Source: a virus (Duplodnaviria > Caudoviricetes). From it: 64,000 nt of DNA. Below are positions 16,820-54,128 of this stretch, piece after piece (positions within the stretch are counted from its first letter, which is position 1; each line of letters starts with the position of its first letter). A program made the translations under genes and the position numbers. The stretch spans positions 1 to 64,000 of the IMG/VR virus record IMGVR_UViG_3300038443_001692. One strand, given 5' to 3'. The notes under the pieces were generated by a model, which worked only from the letters and a program-made list of their open reading frames with translations, was not told the DNA's origin and searched no databases.

Positions 16820-16859
16820 AATTGGTCAGACCAATTAGTGTGAATTGGTCTGACCAATC
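16820..16859. promoter_or_regulatory. two tandem palindromic operators, GntR/FadR (PdhR/LldR-type) box
   Basis: AATTGGTCAGACCAATT (16820-16836) and AATTGGTCTGACCAATC (16843-16859). Confidence 0.7.
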
Positions 16860-30919: not shown

Positions 30920-30948
30920 TTGCTTCATGGAAGCCCCCGTTAGATAAT
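30920..30948 (+). promoter_or_regulatory. sigma70-like promoter of the tape measure gene
   Basis: TTGCTT-17-GATAAT. Confidence 0.5.
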
Positions 30949-30972
30949 GGCAATCTAACGGGGGCTTTGCTT

Positions 30973-48358: not shown

Positions 48359-49123
48359 ATGGACATCCTCGTCATCCCAGATTCCCAGGTCCGCCCTGGC
48401 GACGACCTTGAATTCCTGCGCTGCATCGGCCGCATGATCGTGGCCAAGAAGCCCGACGTCGTGATCCACATCGGTGACTTTGCCGACATGCCGTCGCTCT
48501 CGTCCTACGACAAGGGCAAGAAGGCCTTCGAGGGTCGCCGCTACCGTGCCGACGTCGAGGCCGCGCACGCTGGCATGGAGGCCCTCCTTGGGCCTCTGCG
48601 CGACTATAACGTGCGGCGCCTGGCCAGCAAGCACGGCATCTATCGGCCGCAGATGGAGCTCCTGTACGGGAATCACGAGGCGCGCATCTCGCGCGCGATC
48701 AACGAGGACCCGATGCTGGAAGGCGCTATCGGACTCGAGGATTTGAAGTTTGCCGAGTACGGCTGGAACGTGCATCCGTTCCTCAAGGTGCTGGTAATCG
48801 AGGGTGTCGCGTTCTGCCACTATTTTCAAACTGGCGTGATGGGGCGGCCGGCGTCGACCGCCCAGGCGCAGCTGAACAAAAAACACATGAGTTGCGTGGC
48901 CGGCCACCAGCAGGGCCGCCAGATTTTCACCGCGTTCCGTGCCGACGGCCGCCAGATCACGTCGATCATCGCCGGCAGCTGTTACGAGCACGAAGAGGAC
49001 TATCTCGGCCCGCAGGGCAATCAGCACTGGCACGGTGTGGTTTGGCTGGGCAACGTCGAAGACGGCTGCTTCGACGAGCGATTCATCCCGCTCGACGAGA
49101 TTAAAAAAGACTACGCCGCCTGA
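48359..49123 (+). CDS. calcineurin-like metallophosphoesterase
   Basis: IPDSQ, GDFAD, GNHE, HY and GHQQ motifs. Confidence 0.92.
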   Translation: MDILVIPDSQVRPGDDLEFLRCIGRMIVAKKPDVVIHIGDFADMPSLSSYDKGKKAFEGRRYRADVEAAHAGMEALLGPLRDYNVRRLASKHGIYRPQMELLYGNHEARISRAINEDPMLEGAIGLEDLKFAEYGWNVHPFLKVLVIEGVAFCHYFQTGVMGRPASTAQAQLNKKHMSCVAGHQQGRQIFTAFRADGRQITSIIAGSCYEHEEDYLGPQGNQHWHGVVWLGNVEDGCFDERFIPLDEIKKDYAA

Positions 49124-49137
49124 GCGTTCAGGCGGCG
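49114..49137. terminator. hairpin between convergent transcription units
   Basis: CGCCGCCTGA-GCGT-TCAGGCGGCG; no U tract. Confidence 0.55.
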
Positions 49138-49160
49138 CCCATGTTCACGTTACGTGAACA

Positions 49161-49640: not shown

Positions 49641-51833
49641 TTAAACAGTGATGATGCGGTCAGCGACGGCGTCGACCAGCGGGTTGTGGCTGATCATGAT
49701 GATCTGGCCGAAGTCCAGTTTCGACAAGAGGCCCAGCATGCGCGTCTCGCGCGCGTCGGAACACGCAGCGCCTGGCTCGTCCAGGTGGAGCATATTCGCG
49801 CCGGGAAGAAAGGTGCGTGTCAGCGTGATGCGCATGGCCAGGCCCAGCATGTCCTCGGCCGAGCCGGACAGGCCCGAGACCGGGAAGCCGTTGCATTTGA
49901 ACATGCCGTCGGCGCGCGTGATCGTCGACGGCGTGTCGCGGATCTCGCTCAGGTGCTTACTCACGCCACCCAGCACGATGTTCCACAGCTTGTTCGTGAT
50001 GACCGGCCGCGCCGCGCGCACCTTCTTGATCAGGAGGTTGTAGCGCTGCATGTCGGCCAGCTCGGCCTGCGCGGCTTCCAGCTGGGTCTTCGTCTGTTCC
50101 AACTGGCGCGCAGCTTGCGCGGCAAGGGCTTCCTTCGTCGCAAGGTCGCCCTGCAGGTGCTGCAGGGTGGTCTGCTGCAGCCGCAGCGCCTGTTCAGCGC
50201 TGAGAATGTCCGCACTGAGTCGCTGAGCCCGGTCCAGCGTCTCCAGCGCGTCCTTCAGCTGCAGGCTGTTGCGCTCGACGATGTCGGCACCGCGGCGCGC
50301 CTTCAGGCGGTCGCGCTGGGCCTTCTTCTCGGTGCGCATAGCGGCGTCCGCCGTCGCGGCGCGCGCCTCGCGCTCCAGCTTCGCCAGCTCGCTGGCGACG
50401 GCTGGCCGTACGTCCGAGATGGCCGGGCCGGTCCACGTCCAGCGGCCCGGGACGACGCTGCGGTCGACCGCGATGAAGTCCGCGGCGCGCGCATACAGCT
50501 GCTCGACCTTGGCGTTGGCGGCGACGACATCCTGCAGATCCTTGAGGTACTGGGTCTGCTGGTCGAGCAGCAACTGCTCGGCCGCCAGCACCTTCGCCTT
50601 CAGTTCGATCTTGCGGGCGAGGTCGGCGAGGGCAGCCTTCGTGCGGTCGCGCTCTTCCGTGATCTGACGTTGCAGATCGCTGTTCGCGCGCACCACCTCC
50701 GGCACATCGGTCAGGTCCTTCTGGCACAGCGCGCAGGTCGTCTCCCGAATCAGCCGGCCCTCCAGCTGAGCTATCAGCACGTCGGAACGCCGACGCTCGT
50801 CGGCCTCCTCACGGCGCAGCGCCTGCAGGGCCTGGTCGGCCTCCTTGCGGCCCGCCTCCGCGGCGGCGATGTTGAGCTGCGTGCGCCGGATGTCGGCCTC
50901 GAGCGCGGCCAGATCCTCGTCCCACAGCTCCTCGACGTTCGCACGCACCAGCTCGGCGTGCAGCGCGGCCGCGCGGCTGTAGAGCTTCTCTTCTTCGACG
51001 TCGGCGCGCGCCGCCGCAAGTTCACGCTCCGACGGTCCCAGCACGGCCGGCTGCGCCAACGCACGGTCGATCTCGTCGATCTCGAACGTGGACGTCTCGA
51101 TCATGCGGTCCAGTTGCACCTTGCGCTGCTCGATCTGCTTCGCCTGCTCTACGTCCAGTTCGGCGCGCGAGGCGCGCAAGGTCGTCAGCTGCAGTTCGGC
51201 GCCCGCCACGACAACCTGAGCCTTGGCGACCTCAACGCGCAGCGGCGCAAGGTCTTCAGGCGGTGTGTCGACGATCTGCGCCTGCAGCGTCGCGATGCGG
51301 CCCTCGACGCCGGCCGTGTTGCCGGTCTGCCGCCGCGCAGCGATGGCGTCGGCCACGCGGTCGATCAGGTCGAAGTTGGCCAGATCCTCGATCATCTTGC
51401 CGGCCGCTGTCGGGCCTGCCTTGAGCGATTCGGCCAGCGACTTCTGGCTGGCGAACATCAGCCTGCCGGCCATGTCAGCCGACGTGCCGAACAGATCCTC
51501 GAAGAATTTCGTCACATCGCGCTGGCCAGTGACCAGCACCTTGCCGCCGGCACTGACCTCGGCGCCGGACTTGCCGCGATAGCCGCGGTACGTCACGCCC
51601 AGGTGCTCGATCTCGCACTCGACGCGCAGCTTGCTGACCGGGTGGTGATAGGTCACGACGTCTTCCAGCGACTCGCGCAGCGCGCCGACGCCGAAGCAGA
51701 AATAGGTGAACGACTCAAAAATTGTAGTTTTGCCAACTTCGTTCTCCCCGCGGATCGCATTCAACCCTGTGCTGAAGTCGAACTCCCTGTCGAGGTGTTG
51801 CCTGAAAAATTGCAGCCGGAGCTTACGCAGCAT
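49641..51833 (-). CDS. sbcC: SbcC/Rad50-like SMC ATPase
   Basis: Walker A GENEVGKTT, CALC zinc hook, signature LSGS, Walker B LDEP, H-loop ISH. Confidence 0.92.
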   Translation of the reverse strand: MLRKLRLQFFRQHLDREFDFSTGLNAIRGENEVGKTTIFESFTYFCFGVGALRESLEDVVTYHHPVSKLRVECEIEHLGVTYRGYRGKSGAEVSAGGKVLVTGQRDVTKFFEDLFGTSADMAGRLMFASQKSLAESLKAGPTAAGKMIEDLANFDLIDRVADAIAARRQTGNTAGVEGRIATLQAQIVDTPPEDLAPLRVEVAKAQVVVAGAELQLTTLRASRAELDVEQAKQIEQRKVQLDRMIETSTFEIDEIDRALAQPAVLGPSERELAAARADVEEEKLYSRAAALHAELVRANVEELWDEDLAALEADIRRTQLNIAAAEAGRKEADQALQALRREEADERRRSDVLIAQLEGRLIRETTCALCQKDLTDVPEVVRANSDLQRQITEERDRTKAALADLARKIELKAKVLAAEQLLLDQQTQYLKDLQDVVAANAKVEQLYARAADFIAVDRSVVPGRWTWTGPAISDVRPAVASELAKLEREARAATADAAMRTEKKAQRDRLKARRGADIVERNSLQLKDALETLDRAQRLSADILSAEQALRLQQTTLQHLQGDLATKEALAAQAARQLEQTKTQLEAAQAELADMQRYNLLIKKVRAARPVITNKLWNIVLGGVSKHLSEIRDTPSTITRADGMFKCNGFPVSGLSGSAEDMLGLAMRITLTRTFLPGANMLHLDEPGAACSDARETRMLGLLSKLDFGQIIMISHNPLVDAVADRIITV

Positions 51834-52854
51834 TTTCTTCTCCCATGATTTTGTCAACCTCGGCCGCGTCGTCGGGCCCAAGGTATTCGCGCAGCGCTTC
51901 CATCACGTTGAACGTGGTGACGTCCTCATGCGACAGCTGCAGCGCCTCGCCGTCGACGACGCCTTCGATCTTCACCGCGTTGGTGATGACCAGCGCCGCG
52001 GCCTCGCGCCGGAAGCGGCCCAGCGCCGATACGACCTTGTCGGCTTCGGCGGCTGTGGCCGTGCCGGTGACGCGGATGAAGCGCCCGATGTCTTTGAGAT
52101 CGCGCCAGTCCTGCTCAGAGAACGTGTCCTCGGCATCCCAGGTCTGGTGGAACTTCAGGCCGTTGGGCGCCAACTCAAGGCGGTATTTCTGAGCCGGCCC
52201 GAGGCAGTCGCTGATGCTGGAGCTGATCTGGTTGCCGACGATCACCACCTTGCCGCCAAGCTCTGTGCGTGCCTGGTGCTCGTGGCCAAAGATGATGTAC
52301 TCGACCGGCAGTTGCTCGGCCACCTCCTTCGACAGGTTCAGACTGTGATCCATCTCGACCGCAAACTGGTTGTCGTAGTTCATGTGAACGAACAGTGCCC
52401 GGCACGGCGGCACCTTGGCGAGCTCAAGGTTTGCCAAATCCTGGTTGGGTACGTGCGGCAGAACGTAGGTGTCGTGCTGATCAAGATAGGTGCCTTCCGT
52501 AATATGCGCTACACGCTCCGGATACAGGCCGCACAGCAGCTGCGCGAAAAACTGGAAAGACGACAGGCGCGTGCTGTTGCGATCGACGTCATGGTTCCCG
52601 TTTGCGAGGAACAAATCGCCGACGCCGCGCTCGATCCACGCGCTGAACATGCGCACAGCTTCCAGCAGGTCCGCACGCGGGATGTCCGGGCCGTCGAACA
52701 GGTCGCCGTTGATCAGCAGATCGCCGTTGATCTGCTCGAGCATTTCGCGCGTGCCGTCGAGCAGGTACTGCCGCAGCTGGTACGCTGTAGCGGGGGTGGT
52801 GCCTGCACTTCGGACGGCGCCGAGATGTAGGTCATTAAGGACGTGAAGGGTCAT
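51823..52854 (-). CDS. sbcD: SbcD/Mre11-like nuclease
   Basis: NDLHLG, GDLFD, GNHD and FGHEH motifs; adjacent to sbcC. Confidence 0.92.
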   Translation of the reverse strand: MTLHVLNDLHLGAVRSAGTTPATAYQLRQYLLDGTREMLEQINGDLLINGDLFDGPDIPRADLLEAVRMFSAWIERGVGDLFLANGNHDVDRNSTRLSSFQFFAQLLCGLYPERVAHITEGTYLDQHDTYVLPHVPNQDLANLELAKVPPCRALFVHMNYDNQFAVEMDHSLNLSKEVAEQLPVEYIIFGHEHQARTELGGKVVIVGNQISSSISDCLGPAQKYRLELAPNGLKFHQTWDAEDTFSEQDWRDLKDIGRFIRVTGTATAAEADKVVSALGRFRREAAALVITNAVKIEGVVDGEALQLSHEDVTTFNVMEALREYLGPDDAAEVDKIMGEENAA

Positions 52855-53353
52855 AGTTATTATTCGGGAAGTTGAGACGAGCGAACTCGCCATGTAGTTG
52901 GATTGCCGCTGCATCATATGCTCGCGCTGCGGCCTCTTCGTCACTGTGGTAGCCGAGATGGTAGTTCTTTCGATTGGCCATAATCTTTGCGTGCCAGGCA
53001 CTGCACACCTTGCTCCAGTACACACCCTTGAATCGAGAAGCGCCGACCCGGGAAGTGCTATTTTGGTGGTTCTGAAGGTCGGTCACGACTCGCAATTCGC
53101 TGCGACGGTTGTCCAGGGTGTCACCAAGCCTGTGGTCCACCTCTTGCTCCGGCGCCGCCTGCATGATCAGACGATGCATCTTCACCTGCGTGGTCTGGAT
53201 GCCCAGATGCCCGAACAGCAGCCTGAACTTTTTGCCTTTCGTGCTGGTGACAGCATAGCCGTTACACCAGCACCACTTCAGCTGCGTCAGCCATTCGTAG
53301 TCTTCATCATCCACCAGCGCGACGAATCCCTTCGTGAGGGGAATCTCCTTCAC
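52835..53353 (-). CDS. free-standing HNH-AP2 homing endonuclease
   Basis: MHRLIM...VDH..GDTLDNRRSELR plus AP2 domain FKGV.W...W.A.I...LG...AARAYD.AA..LHGEFA.LNFP; GTG start, GGAGG RBS; lower GC. Confidence 0.92.
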   Translation of the reverse strand: MKEIPLTKGFVALVDDEDYEWLTQLKWCWCNGYAVTSTKGKKFRLLFGHLGIQTTQVKMHRLIMQAAPEQEVDHRLGDTLDNRRSELRVVTDLQNHQNSTSRVGASRFKGVYWSKVCSAWHAKIMANRKNYHLGYHSDEEAAARAYDAAAIQLHGEFARLNFPNNNYDPSRP

Positions 53354-53368
53354 AGTGCCTCCAAACAA

Positions 53369-53500
53369 AAGCCCTCCTGACCGTGCTCTCGACCCGAGGG
53401 TCGAGTTGGCGGACGTCGAGTAGACGCAGCACGGTCAGGAGGGCTTACTCAGGTTCGCCGCCAAGCGAACCTGCAGACTACAGCAGGAAATTACCTGCCG
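53369..53500 (-). ncRNA. candidate pseudoknotted cis-regulatory RNA ending in a terminator-like stem
   Basis: 19-bp perfect stem 53369-53387/53428-53446, four further helices, loop-loop complement 53458-53464/53406-53412. Confidence 0.6.
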
Positions 53501-53953
53501 TCAAGGAAACAACAGCGCCATCACATCCTCGACCTTGGGGTAGGCTGGGAACATCGAGACGTCCCAGGATGCTGCTCGCTCGTAGAAGTGCGAAGCCGGC
53601 ACCACCCGCCACTCGCGCACACCGCCACGGCCCTCGGTCAGGTGGCAGATGACGACCCAGCCAGGCGAGCCGGCCAGCGCCCACTTGCGCATGCGGGCCA
53701 CCTTGTCGGCCGCGAAGTTCGCCGCCGGCAGCCGCCGGCTGGAGACGGTCGTGATCTTGACCTCCTTCACCTCGACCTTAAAGTTCGTGCCGCGGTGCGT
53801 CACCTCGAAGTCGGACGGCGCCGGCTGGGCCGAGCCCGCCCTGGCATCCGGGTACCGGAGAAACGCCAGCTGCGCATCAGCCTCGCTACGTCGGGCAAGC
53901 CAGTCACGGACCTGCTTCTCGGCCCACTTGCCACGTTGTCCTACTGTTGCCAT
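53501..53953 (-). CDS. Holliday junction resolvase, PD-(D/E)xK
   Basis: G..AE, PSDF and VEVK motifs; located among recombination genes. Confidence 0.75.
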   Translation of the reverse strand: MATVGQRGKWAEKQVRDWLARRSEADAQLAFLRYPDARAGSAQPAPSDFEVTHRGTNFKVEVKEVKITTVSSRRLPAANFAADKVARMRKWALAGSPGWVVICHLTEGRGGVREWRVVPASHFYERAASWDVSMFPAYPKVEDVMALLFP

Positions 53954-53954
53954 G

Positions 53955-54128
53955 TCAGTCTCCTTCCCCGTCGAGCAGCTGGCACGCATCCTGCAAGCTG
54001 TCCTCGATTGTCTCGAGGGTGATTCGCAGTTTGCTGCCCGGCTCGGCAGCCTCGATGAGCGGCTTGACCTTCTGCAGCGCGCGCTCGATTTTTGTGACCG
54101 CTGCCTCGATCTTTCTGACGGCGCTCAT
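53955..54128 (-). CDS. small coiled-coil protein
   Basis: 57 aa, coupled to thyA. Confidence 0.6.
   Translation of the reverse strand: MSAVRKIEAAVTKIERALQKVKPLIEAAEPGSKLRITLETIEDSLQDACQLLDGEGD

Follow-up and report, generated by a model that had tools for sequence, protein, structure and literature searches.

A phage leader RNA family with two pseudoknots and a terminator-like stem, a candidate attenuator ahead of replication and homing endonuclease genes

The element directly upstream of an HNH-AP2 homing-endonuclease-like gene in the phage DNA analysed here belongs to a large family of uncatalogued phage leader RNAs, ~105-111 nt in length. Throughout, the window denotes the whole stretch of 64,000 nucleotides. 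With moderate confidence we model the leader as a cis-acting, promoter-proximal attenuator, in which a knotted fold and the lower half of a terminator-like stem would exclude each other and behind which endonuclease genes would have inserted.

Results

Architecture of the leader

The initial annotation had listed hairpins, a 19-bp stem enclosing a three-way junction, a U-tract and the complementary strands UUGGCGG and CCGCCAA, all on the minus strand. Each was found in the minus-strand sequence where it had been placed. The features of the leader and its surroundings are as follows.

53501..53989, minus strand: upstream ORF of 162 aa, a marker of the phage lineage (76-83% identical in four related phages)
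53499..53504, minus strand: -35-like hexamer TTGACG, sharing bases with the stop codon TGA of the upstream ORF
53481..53500, minus strand: hairpin P1 of the initial annotation, CGGCAGG-UAAUUU-CCUGCUG, which folds and coincides with the promoter spacer
53475..53480, minus strand: -10-like hexamer TAGTCT, weak, 3/6 (A2, T6)
53363..53472, minus strand: whole leader RNA, as matched by covariance model R1
53450..53473, minus strand: hairpin H1 (P2 of the initial annotation), CAGGUUCGC-UUGGCG-GCGAACCUG, from sequence and fold
53458..53464, minus strand: pseudoknot 1, 5' strand UUGGCGG (H1 loop and first 3' stem base), complementary to 53406-53412
53446..53450, minus strand: pseudoknot 2, 5' strand GAGUA (linker 5' of stem S), pairing with 53418-53422
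53428..53446, minus strand: long stem S, 5' arm of 19 nt, perfect inverted repeat
53413..53427, minus strand: hairpin A, G, CGUC-UACUC-GACG, U (GCGUC/GACGU), from fold and family alignment
53418..53422, minus strand: pseudoknot 2, 3' strand UACUC (hairpin A loop), pairing with 53446-53450
53406..53412, minus strand: pseudoknot 1, 3' strand CCGCCAA (junction between hairpins A and B), exact complement of 53458-53464
53388..53405, minus strand: hairpin B, CUCGACC-CUCG-GGUCGAG, from fold and family alignment
53369..53387, minus strand: long stem S, 3' arm of 19 nt, with the U-run of intrinsic-terminator shape
53363..53370, minus strand: U-run UUUUGUUU after the long stem
53358..53362, minus strand: Shine-Dalgarno sequence GGAGG of the HNH-AP2 gene, start codon 4 nt on
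52835..53353, minus strand: HNH-AP2 homing-endonuclease-like gene, 172 aa, GTG start at 53351-53353 (Pfam HNH_3 1.4e-5, AP2 1e-5)
51823..52854, minus strand: sbcD-like nuclease gene, ATG at 52852-52854 (Pfam Metallophos)
49641..51881, minus strand: sbcC-like ATPase gene (Pfam AAA_23/SMC_N)
49113-49138: terminator-like site after the sbcC-like gene, from a terminator scan

Nowhere else in the 64-kb window is there a perfect inverted repeat as long as stem S whose arms are separated. RNAfold returned the same nested fold for the minus strand at -89.6 kcal/mol (200 shuffles, z = -8.97). For the plus strand it gave -80.3 (z = -8.1), and no U-run follows the stem there. Hairpin P1, taken at the outset to be part of the RNA, is present and folds, but its position is that of promoter DNA. 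It probably lies outside the RNA unit because it is conserved neither in the relatives of this phage nor in the leader family.

A family with two covarying pseudoknots

The covariance model R1, built in this analysis with 109 positions, matches the window over positions 1-109 of 109 (76.7 bits, E about 1e-16). An R1 search found one copy of the leader in the 84,888-bp genome. A single 20-base pattern matched at least 119 IMG/VR phage contigs, where ~5 were estimated by chance, and the full-length architecture is complete in 112 of the at least 119 matches. Compensatory double changes were seen at 25 of the 32 nested pairs. Almost all pairs of stem S covary across the members, and the H1 stem occurs as CGC/GCG, CCC/GGG and CAC/GUG, with AU, GC, UA or CG as its outermost pair; the H1 core kept across the family reads UCGC-UUGGCG-GCGA in the window (53455-53468). 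Hairpin B of the window exceeds the 4-6 bp of most members. A G.U pair at the base of hairpin A is invariant (columns 50/68, 57/57). The sequence is near-invariant in phages that span 44-64% G+C. Moreover, the conserved bases are almost all engaged in pairs, and there is little obvious space for a pocket that could hold a small molecule.

The pseudoknot between the H1 loop and the junction, as first proposed from the window, is real, conserved and covarying in the family. Its duplex energy in the window is -10.9 kcal/mol, and the window conforms to the family form, a UUGGNNG loop against an NNNCCAA junction strand. Covariation is also seen in members whose retrieval query left out the pseudoknot sequence. 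Variants are UUGGCAG:CUGCCAA (L327, L331) and UUGGUCG:CGACCAA (L302), and in L377 UUGGCAG faces CUGCCAG, which gives one G.U pair.

A second pseudoknot, absent from the initial annotation, joins GAGUA to the hairpin A loop UACUC. In the window it comprises 5 bp in the same register as the family, and the final A of GAGUA doubles as the first base of S. Across the family, helix positions 3-5 are each occupied by four Watson-Crick types (AU, GC, CG, UA), with pairing at 88-95%. On average the contiguous helix has a length of 4.65, against 2.80 +/- 0.13 after loops were exchanged at random between sequences; there are 39 helix variants, and no shuffle control reached the observed length.

Searches against catalogued RNAs and genomes returned little. 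Rfam 15 was scanned at permissive thresholds with the window region and six canonical members, and no family reached its gathering threshold; the best scores were chance matches to microRNA hairpins (24-28 bits against thresholds of 57-80). The families covered include C4/CI, HEARO and the pistol, hatchet, twister-sister and HDV-like ribozymes. An assignment to a catalogued self-cleaving ribozyme or riboswitch family was thus not upheld. ARAGORN found no tRNA or tmRNA gene in the window. The exact 19-mer of the stem had no match in IMG/VR, and blastn of the window region against GenBank phages gave no match; three other members gave two metagenome-derived records, both from a single spring, and no cultured phage or host. 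A pattern scan of genome contigs, in which chance matches from G+C-rich genomes dominated the listing, gave one match at the thresholds used among the 120 loci listed, in an uncultured Paraburkholderia MAG. R1 matched 2 of 151 genomes of that MAG's order and, in a sample of its class, nothing beyond the centre genome itself. Literature searches with sequence strings and keywords gave no description of the leader; an IMG/VR catalogue of 10,006 candidate RNAs may contain it (PMC10690425).

Promoter, terminator and position in cis

The last base of TAGTCT lies 7 nt ahead of the C of CGCUUGG, with TTGACG 18 nt upstream; a generic promoter scan gave no call here. In the family, a -10 box ends 7-12 nt before the same C in 48 of 55 representatives, and TATAAT is matched at 5 or 6 of 6 positions in 40. 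The related phages L003-L005 carry TTGAC at the matching place, followed 17 nt on by GAGAAT or CAAAAT.

At its 3' end the leader has the shape of an intrinsic terminator, a G+C-rich hairpin followed directly by a U-run on the transcribed strand. A simple terminator scan did not list the element because canonical terminators have a much smaller loop. A U-run follows the stem in 112 of the at least 119 pattern matches listed. Of the 7 that lack one, 5 look like chance, and the other two (L097 and L177) are leaders of the L032 type. Members of this type keep the fold despite a poor U-run (UCUUUCG), which suggests a function beyond termination.

A predicted promoter and a long U-run of its own would delimit a discrete RNA. 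The leader might then be a stand-alone small RNA gene, whose ~105-nt knotted product works in trans, perhaps by titrating a host protein, nuclease or defence sensor as a decoy or sponge, while downstream genes are expressed only by leakage. A compact, nearly fully paired fold that opens with a hairpin and closes with a terminator would suit a stable RNA, as would its retention across very different phage backbones and, in L032-type members, in spite of the weak U-run. Abundant short 5'-UTR RNAs are also known in phages (PMC10914365). Nevertheless, we regard this reading as unlikely. A same-strand start codon lies 0-27 nt past the U-run, mostly 7-15 nt, in 104/104 distinct members with downstream sequence (9 nt to the GTG in the window), an arrangement that an independent RNA gene would not need. 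Moreover, the ribosome-binding site directly after the U-run leaves no space for another promoter, and once both pseudoknots are counted no conserved single-stranded seed remains.

Genes behind the leader

Most members precede replication genes. The leader sits between P22_Cro-like and DUF1376/primosomal genes, or before ParB-helicase or PolA genes, and at 61 of 98 loci a member of the DUF1376 superfamily is encoded downstream. The backbones of the carrier phages are very different. Conversely, only 7 of 80 DUF1376 loci have the leader, which is therefore dispensable for expression of the replication genes. A dedicated protein partner was rejected, as no single protein family recurs at every locus and the window genome has no DUF1376 gene.

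At about 15% of loci, a homing endonuclease from one of several families stands between the leader and the usual first gene. Pfam searches with the 104 first downstream proteins gave HNH_3 in 11, NUMOD4 in 9, GIY-YIG in 2 and T5orf172 in 1. The usual first gene (PolA, DUF1376, KNWxKFQHFKDR or IKPEFW type) follows directly in 15 of 17 nuclease-first loci; of the remainder, L127 has a helicase-like gene next and L150 a gap. Judged from these gene orders, the junction between leader and gene is a recurrent landing site for endonuclease genes.

The same fold was sought upstream of related HNH-AP2 genes, and it is mostly absent there. The leader occurs at 0 of 80 metagenome loci (the metagenome scan with the HNH protein yielded relatives of at most 50% identity only) and at only 3 of 53 viral loci, all of them near-identical. 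Many HNH-AP2 genes sit behind plain terminators. These counts, and the replication genes behind most members, speak against the proposal that the element is specific to HNH genes or an RNA partner of the nuclease. A second HNH-AP2 gene, 40% identical, was found behind the same leader type (L032/L097/L301). A leader and HNH-AP2 cassette shared by the window and L032 was considered and rejected, as the window leader is closest to those of L124 and L064.

The proximity of an AP2 domain raises the question of a DNA-level element, in which the CCGCCAA motifs would be AP2 sites, for autoregulation or as a homing target, or the 19-bp repeat an insertion scar. We hold this to be very improbable. Most members have no AP2 protein nearby, and none of 80 further HNH-AP2 loci has CCGCCAA-type motifs. 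The two motifs of the leader are inverted, GC-rich and similar to a GCC box, and AP2 domains reportedly bind GC-rich DNA; endonuclease genes also insert repeatedly at the leader-gene junction. Against this, the G.U pairs, in pseudoknot 1 of L377 and in the stems, are meaningful in RNA only, and the U-run and promoter are strand-specific. A DNA-binding site as the primary role is largely refuted by these pairs and strand-specific features. The element could be a homing target besides being an RNA.

The locus in its phage lineage

The HNH-AP2 protein has 3383 homologues, the closest 84% identical, and P0002-P0005 share 84-59% identity with it. The final 20 nt of its gene overlap the start of sbcD, which was fixed by comparison with the related phages L003-L006; the sbcD-like protein is 94% identical to that of L006. 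The upstream ORF has no credible Pfam match.

Leader and HNH-AP2 gene are both missing from 5 of 5 complete related phage genomes, and likewise from alleles bridged by contigs of soil and rhizosphere runs; among contigs of four runs, none covers the leader itself. In the relatives, the slot is empty or occupied by another endonuclease, and in L003-L006 it holds a plain hairpin with or without a U-run. The claim that the element travels with the endonuclease thus holds within this lineage, where the two are present or absent together, but not across HNH-AP2 loci. Most likely, leader and HNH-AP2 gene arrived together in this lineage.

Discussion

Proposed mechanism

Of the functions initially offered for the window element (attenuator, riboswitch-like element or RNA partner of the endonuclease), an attenuator-type gate is favoured, and the RNA partner, the HNH-specific element and the known riboswitches and ribozymes are not. 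Such a gate on the HNH gene and on sbcD/sbcC, as predicted from sequence, is the most economical reading because the terminator-like stem and U-run stand directly before the ribosome-binding site. Transcription would start from the predicted sigma-70-type promoter a few bases before H1. The nascent RNA would fold H1 and then S enclosing hairpins A and B, and both pseudoknots could form. Polymerase would either stop at S and its U-run, yielding a short RNA, or read through into HNH-AP2, sbcD and sbcC.

On geometric grounds, pseudoknot 2 and the lower half of S appear mutually exclusive, because the last base of the linker is also the first base of S and would be needed beside hairpin A, atop a helix of 17-19 bp. 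If so, read-through would correspond to the knotted fold, in which only the upper half of S is formed, and stopping would correspond to full S. Folding kinetics, or else a host factor or ligand, may decide between the two. Endonucleases of several families would have been inserted between this gate and the usual first gene.

The lower part of S is worth about -12.6 kcal/mol against about -6.3 kcal/mol for pseudoknot 2. With S some 6 kcal/mol the stabler, the element may simply terminate unless an extra factor intervenes. This thermodynamic dominance of S would fit a constitutive structure that does not switch, either an efficient insulated terminator or a 5' stabiliser against 5'-end-dependent decay, in which pseudoknots merely hasten or rigidify folding. 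The pairing of nearly all conserved bases would also agree with it. Moreover, plain hairpins fill the slot in L003-L006 and plain terminators precede many HNH-AP2 genes, so a simple hairpin suffices for the position. Yet two covarying pseudoknots and near-invariant sequence in genomes of such different G+C content exceed what a plain terminator or stabiliser needs, and pseudoknot 2, which has one base in common with S, seems unable to form beside it for steric reasons. We therefore judge a constitutive structure quite unlikely and retain the attenuator.

Were the attenuator reading true, a widespread, well-defined RNA fold with more than 100 members, two covarying pseudoknots and a built-in terminator, absent from Rfam, would sit at the entry to the replication genes of many uncultivated phages. 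Promoter, leader and terminator would form a compact, portable gate, one that might represent a new mechanism of antitermination, riboswitch-like or directed at the polymerase. The reading would also explain where free-standing homing endonucleases land in phages, and their low expression. The leader RNA is small enough for structure determination and simple in vitro transcription.

A bolder version, which we offer only tentatively as a possibility, would make the leader a new class of RNA antitermination, a double-pseudoknot "knot-versus-terminator" switch that answers a universal host cue, serves as master gate of replication modules and is exploited by at least four endonuclease families. 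Candidate cues would be RNA polymerase itself, a nucleotide-type metabolite or another conserved factor.

Comparison with known RNAs

HK022 put and lambda nutR-tR1 are cis-acting RNAs, located after cro and before the replication genes, that decide passage through terminators. In the case of put no phage protein is needed; it consists of a pair of stem-loops, has neither pseudoknots nor a terminator of its own, and affects terminators further downstream. The likeness is positional only, as in L062, where the leader is flanked by a P22_Cro-like gene and a replication gene. Unlike put, the leader has a predicted promoter of its own, two pseudoknots and a terminator-like stem.

Among virulent Pseudomonas phages, ONT-cappable-seq mapped 5'-UTR terminators at most 250 nt after a promoter, with two modes of output: either an abundant short RNA is made or transcription continues into the genes. 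One of these terminators precedes a primase/helicase gene (PMC10914365). The order of promoter and 5'-UTR terminator is the same in the leader family, which is known from sequence alone. The Pseudomonas leaders, by contrast, are lineage-specific, have mapped transcripts and share no fold, whereas here one double-pseudoknot architecture recurs in many unrelated phages.

The preQ1, fluoride, ZTP and THF riboswitches resemble the leader in being promoter-proximal, with a compact pseudoknotted fold, a near-invariant core, a terminator and a ribosome-binding site just after it. However, riboswitches and attenuators compete by strand exchange, whereas here the terminator stem encloses the knot; few conserved bases are unpaired, and no Rfam riboswitch family matches.

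The C4 antisense RNA of P1/P7 and the CI RNA of P4 (Rfam RF01695) are likewise small, structured, leader-derived phage RNAs with internal complementary boxes. C4 and CI RNAs control downstream early genes via termination or translation. Their architecture and sequence boxes differ from those of the leader, and the permissive Rfam scans gave no match to them. HEARO, the omega RNA of IscB, is another structured RNA adjoining an HNH nuclease gene, and is the parallel at which the initial proposal of an RNA partner hinted. The leader is one third its size, does not match it in Rfam, and in most members has no HNH gene beside it.

Lastly, the promoter-stem-loop (PeSL) cassettes of T4-type phages are said to flank shuffled or selfish genes and may serve recombination. 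There is a likeness in that the leader and HNH gene replace a unit of promoter and simple hairpin found in the relatives of this phage. PeSLs, however, are simple stem-loops, whereas the leader is a conserved, complex fold with two pseudoknots.

Structure of the leader

The initial annotation had placed two hairpins, a long stem containing a CCGCCAA strand, a U-run and a GGAGG on the minus strand directly upstream of the HNH-AP2 endonuclease gene. All of these are present, followed by a GTG start, and RNAfold returned the nested structure exactly as read, at -89.6 kcal/mol; relative to 200 dinucleotide shuffles this is z = -8.97.

Features of the leader and the genes that follow
Within 53363-53500, minus strand: hairpin CGGCAGG/CCUGCUG
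Within 53363-53500, minus strand: second hairpin (H1), CAGGUUCGC-UUGGCG-GCGAACCUG
53428-53446 with 53369-53387, minus strand: perfect 19-bp stem (S) enclosing two short hairpins (A and B)
Within 53363-53500, minus strand: CCGCCAA, single-stranded, between the two enclosed hairpins
After the stem, minus strand: UUUUGUUU, GGAGG and GTG start, in that order
52835-53353, minus strand: HNH_3+AP2 endonuclease gene
52852-52854, minus strand: ATG of sbcD, giving a 20-nt overlap with the end of the HNH gene
49113-49138, minus strand: terminator-like site after sbcC

The preference for the minus strand was borne out: the plus strand is less stable (-80.3 kcal/mol) and has no U-run 3′ of the stem. When the window was scanned, the 19-bp repeat was the sole perfect inverted repeat of such length with separated arms. 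The CGGCAGG/CCUGCUG hairpin, on the other hand, is probably not part of the element. It is unconserved and forms the spacer between TTGACG and TAGTCT, which occupy the -35 and -10 positions of a promoter-like site common to relatives. ARAGORN found no tRNA. The proposed Rfam scan yielded no family for the element or for canonical members of its family; against Rfam 15 the element gave chance hairpin matches only (24 bits, threshold 80).

Elsewhere in the window, a GCCGG/CCGGTAT repeat-rich block at 12200-12340, with 22-nt inverted arms at 12226-12247 and 12289-12310 and a plus-strand fold of z = -7.5, resembles an iteron, origin or operator region. Further perfect hairpins lie at 30931-30967 (15 bp, AAGCCCCCGUUAGAU, 7-nt loop, terminator-like) and 16821-16858 (16-bp palindrome, ATTGGTCAGACCAATT).

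A leader family with two pseudoknots

The upstream regions of related HNH-AP2 genes had been proposed as the place to look for the same fold. Folding the upstream regions of 53 IMG/VR homologues recovered the architecture in three near-identical loci (L032, L033 and L035; HNH-AP2 protein ~40% identical), where stem sequences differ and the UUGGCG loop and CCGCCAA strand are the same. Other HNH-AP2 genes have elaborate leaders of different kinds: two hairpins with loops complementary over 8 nt (L034:1861-2012) and a long stem with a three-way junction and U-run (L044:1861-2012). At ~15 further loci a plain terminator lies directly 5′ of the ribosome-binding site.

Two strings common to the window and the L032 type, 30-60 nt apart, were then used as a pattern on IMG/VR. 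At least 119 contigs matched, a lower bound on family size, against ~5 estimated by chance; spacing was nearly constant, and the whole element with its U-run was found in 112 of the matches listed. An alignment of 57 diverse members contains 32 nested pairs, of which 25 show double compensatory changes. With the covariance model built from it (R1), the window reaches 76.7 bits and the L032 type 79.6 bits. Literature searches by sequence string and keyword returned no description, although a published catalogue of 10,006 IMG/VR candidate structured RNAs may include the family. Hosts are known from a single order only, through two prophage-like copies in its genomes.

Since the pattern itself fixed the pairing of the H1 loop with the junction strand (pseudoknot 1), we sought members independently of it, by R1 searches in 151 genomes that belong to the same order as an uncultured Paraburkholderia genome, and in 80 loci retrieved with the DUF1376 protein.

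Pseudoknot 1 in family members (H1 loop / junction strand)
Most members: UUGGCGG / CCGCCAA, canonical
Loci L331 and L327: UUGGCAG / CUGCCAA, both strands changed at one pair
Locus L302: UUGGUCG / CGACCAA, both strands changed at two pairs
Locus L377: UUGGCAG / CUGCCAG, one G.U pair

The UUGGCGG/CCGCCAA pseudoknot of the initial annotation thus covaries in members found without the pattern, and none of 65 sequences carries a mismatched pair. The H1 loop always keeps UUGG and the junction strand keeps CCAA (tabulated for L377 as CUGCCAG); speculatively, this recalls the NCCA/UGGN pairing of T-box and RNase P systems.

A second pseudoknot is formed by the 5-7 nt directly 5′ of S and the loop of hairpin A. 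Its helix takes 39 different forms, among them CACAGU/ACUGUG, CAGGUA/UACCUG and CGCAAUA/UAUUGCG (GAGUA/UACUC in the window), with four Watson-Crick pair types at each of three positions, which are 88-95% paired. The mean contiguous helix is 4.65, against 2.80 ± 0.13 (maximum 3.31) in 2000 shuffles of loops among sequences. As judged from these comparisons, both pseudoknots are real.

A purely DNA-level reading is ruled out by the G.U pairs, by a U-run present on one side only and by the promoter. A DNA site for the AP2 domain in particular is argued against by the RNA-only pairs and by the lack of AP2 genes near most members; the leader-gene junction may be a homing target in addition.

Predicted promoter and distance to the next gene

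A -10 box ends 7-12 nt 5′ of the first hairpin in 48/55 representatives; in 40 of these it retains 5 or 6 of the 6 TATAAT positions, often with an upstream TG. A -35 of TTGCG/TTGAA type is seen in subfamilies. Wherever downstream sequence was available (104 distinct members), a same-strand start codon lies 0-27 nt (mostly 7-15) after the U-run, with a GG-rich ribosome-binding site directly 3′ of the run. This tight spacing is the main argument for a cis role: the leader is, on sequence grounds, promoter-proximal and tied to the next gene. A trans-acting small RNA would suit both the rigid fold and its place in a discrete unit running from promoter to terminator, but would leave the invariant spacing unexplained, and we consider it unlikely.

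Proposed mechanism

The comparisons establish, at the level of sequence, a leader that has a conserved two-pseudoknot fold with a terminator-shaped end, lies just downstream of a promoter-like site and keeps a fixed distance to the next start codon. Polymerase arriving from the leader promoter or the upstream operon would either stop at S and the U-run or continue into HNH-AP2, sbcD and sbcC. Pseudoknot 2 and S share one base, the last of the linker and the first of the stem. In the knot, this shared base would have to stack on hairpin A, a hairpin that emerges from the top of S; it would thus sit 17-19 bp (~50 Angstrom) away from the foot of the stem, with zero spare nucleotides between. The knot is therefore predicted to exclude the lower half of S and to be compatible with the upper half only. 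In a knotted state, lower S would be open and no hairpin would precede the U-run, allowing read-through; full S would give termination. Two-mode 5′-UTR terminators have measured precedents in phages (PMC10914365).

Lower S is the more stable (family mean -12.6 kcal/mol, against -6.3 kcal/mol for pseudoknot 2), so read-through would depend either on kinetic trapping while the RNA is being transcribed or on a stabilising factor shared by hosts of 44-64% G+C, for which RNA polymerase, a metabolite and a conserved protein are candidates. These energetics agree with a purely structural terminator or stabiliser, a reading that we regard as quite improbable because it leaves both the covarying pseudoknots and the near-invariant core sequence unexplained.

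Downstream genes and probable nuclease insertions

Leaders are found between a P22_Cro-like gene and a DUF1376/primosomal gene, before a ParB-like gene and helicase, and between exonuclease and nucleotidyltransferase genes and a NUMOD4-HNH gene followed by DNA polymerase A. Just downstream, 61/98 distinct loci encode a member of one single-linkage cluster, which includes the DUF1376 proteins. Pfam assigned the 104 first downstream proteins to DUF1376 (21), HNH_3 (11), NUMOD4 (9), AP2 (3), GIY-YIG (2) and T5orf172 (1). A 60-84-aa protein family with a '...G.I.I.Q' motif comes first at L073, L083, L110, L118, L134, L146, L147, L160 and L168.

Where a nuclease came first (17 loci examined), the usual first gene (PolA, DUF1376, KNWxKFQHFKDR and IKPEFW types) was immediately next in 15; the others have a helicase-like gene next (L127) or a gap before a replication gene (L150). 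The nucleases would therefore be insertions at the leader-gene junction. The leader is present in only 7/80 DUF1376 loci, and the phage genome that holds the window lacks a DUF1376 gene. At L032/L097/L301-type loci it precedes HNH-AP2 gene(s) only. The window's leader has no special closeness to that type, so the two leader/HNH-AP2 associations look independent. In the uncultured Paraburkholderia genome, two tandem HNH-AP2-like genes (L301:230-847 and 1014-1550) follow the leader beside an apparent host metabolic gene.

The slot in related phages

The source record is a complete virus genome of 84,888 bp with terminal repeats. Its minus-strand order is ATP-dependent ligase, thymidylate synthase, 162-aa ORF, element, HNH_3+AP2 endonuclease, sbcD and sbcC. 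The 162-aa ORF is encoded by four related phages (76-83% identity). In two of these (L003 and L004) its stop codon precedes a promoter-like site (TTGAC-N17-GAGAAT/CAAAAT) and a plain GC hairpin, after which sbcD comes directly, with no endonuclease gene in the slot; in the other two (L005 and L006) it precedes a plain hairpin and U-run, a different endonuclease gene (220-228 aa) and sbcD. That endonuclease-like gene (L005:3587-4273, L006:3547-4209; the slot corresponding to 52835-53500 of the window) carries CxCxCG...SCGC and YxxWxxMxxRC motifs and overlaps the sbcD start.

Covariance-model searches found exactly one copy of the element in the window's own genome and none in the four relatives or a more distant fifth (L007), all complete genomes. 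In four soil/rhizosphere runs, contigs bridge the slot in two forms, an empty one of 153 nt that reaches high depth and one of 673 nt that holds the other endonuclease, and no contig covers the leader. From these relatives and bridging contigs, the element and HNH-AP2 gene would then be a joint rare allele, in this lineage, of a slot that is an endonuclease-gene hotspot. The proposal that the leader travels with the endonuclease holds for this lineage but does not extend to 80 further HNH-AP2 loci from metagenomes, none of which has the leader. The slot has mosaic flanks: on one side SbcD (51823-52854) shares 94% identity with its L006 counterpart, and on the other the 162-aa ORF (53501-53989) shares only 76% with L006 and 83% with L003. 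This unequal identity to the L006 phage suggests a recombination breakpoint at the slot.
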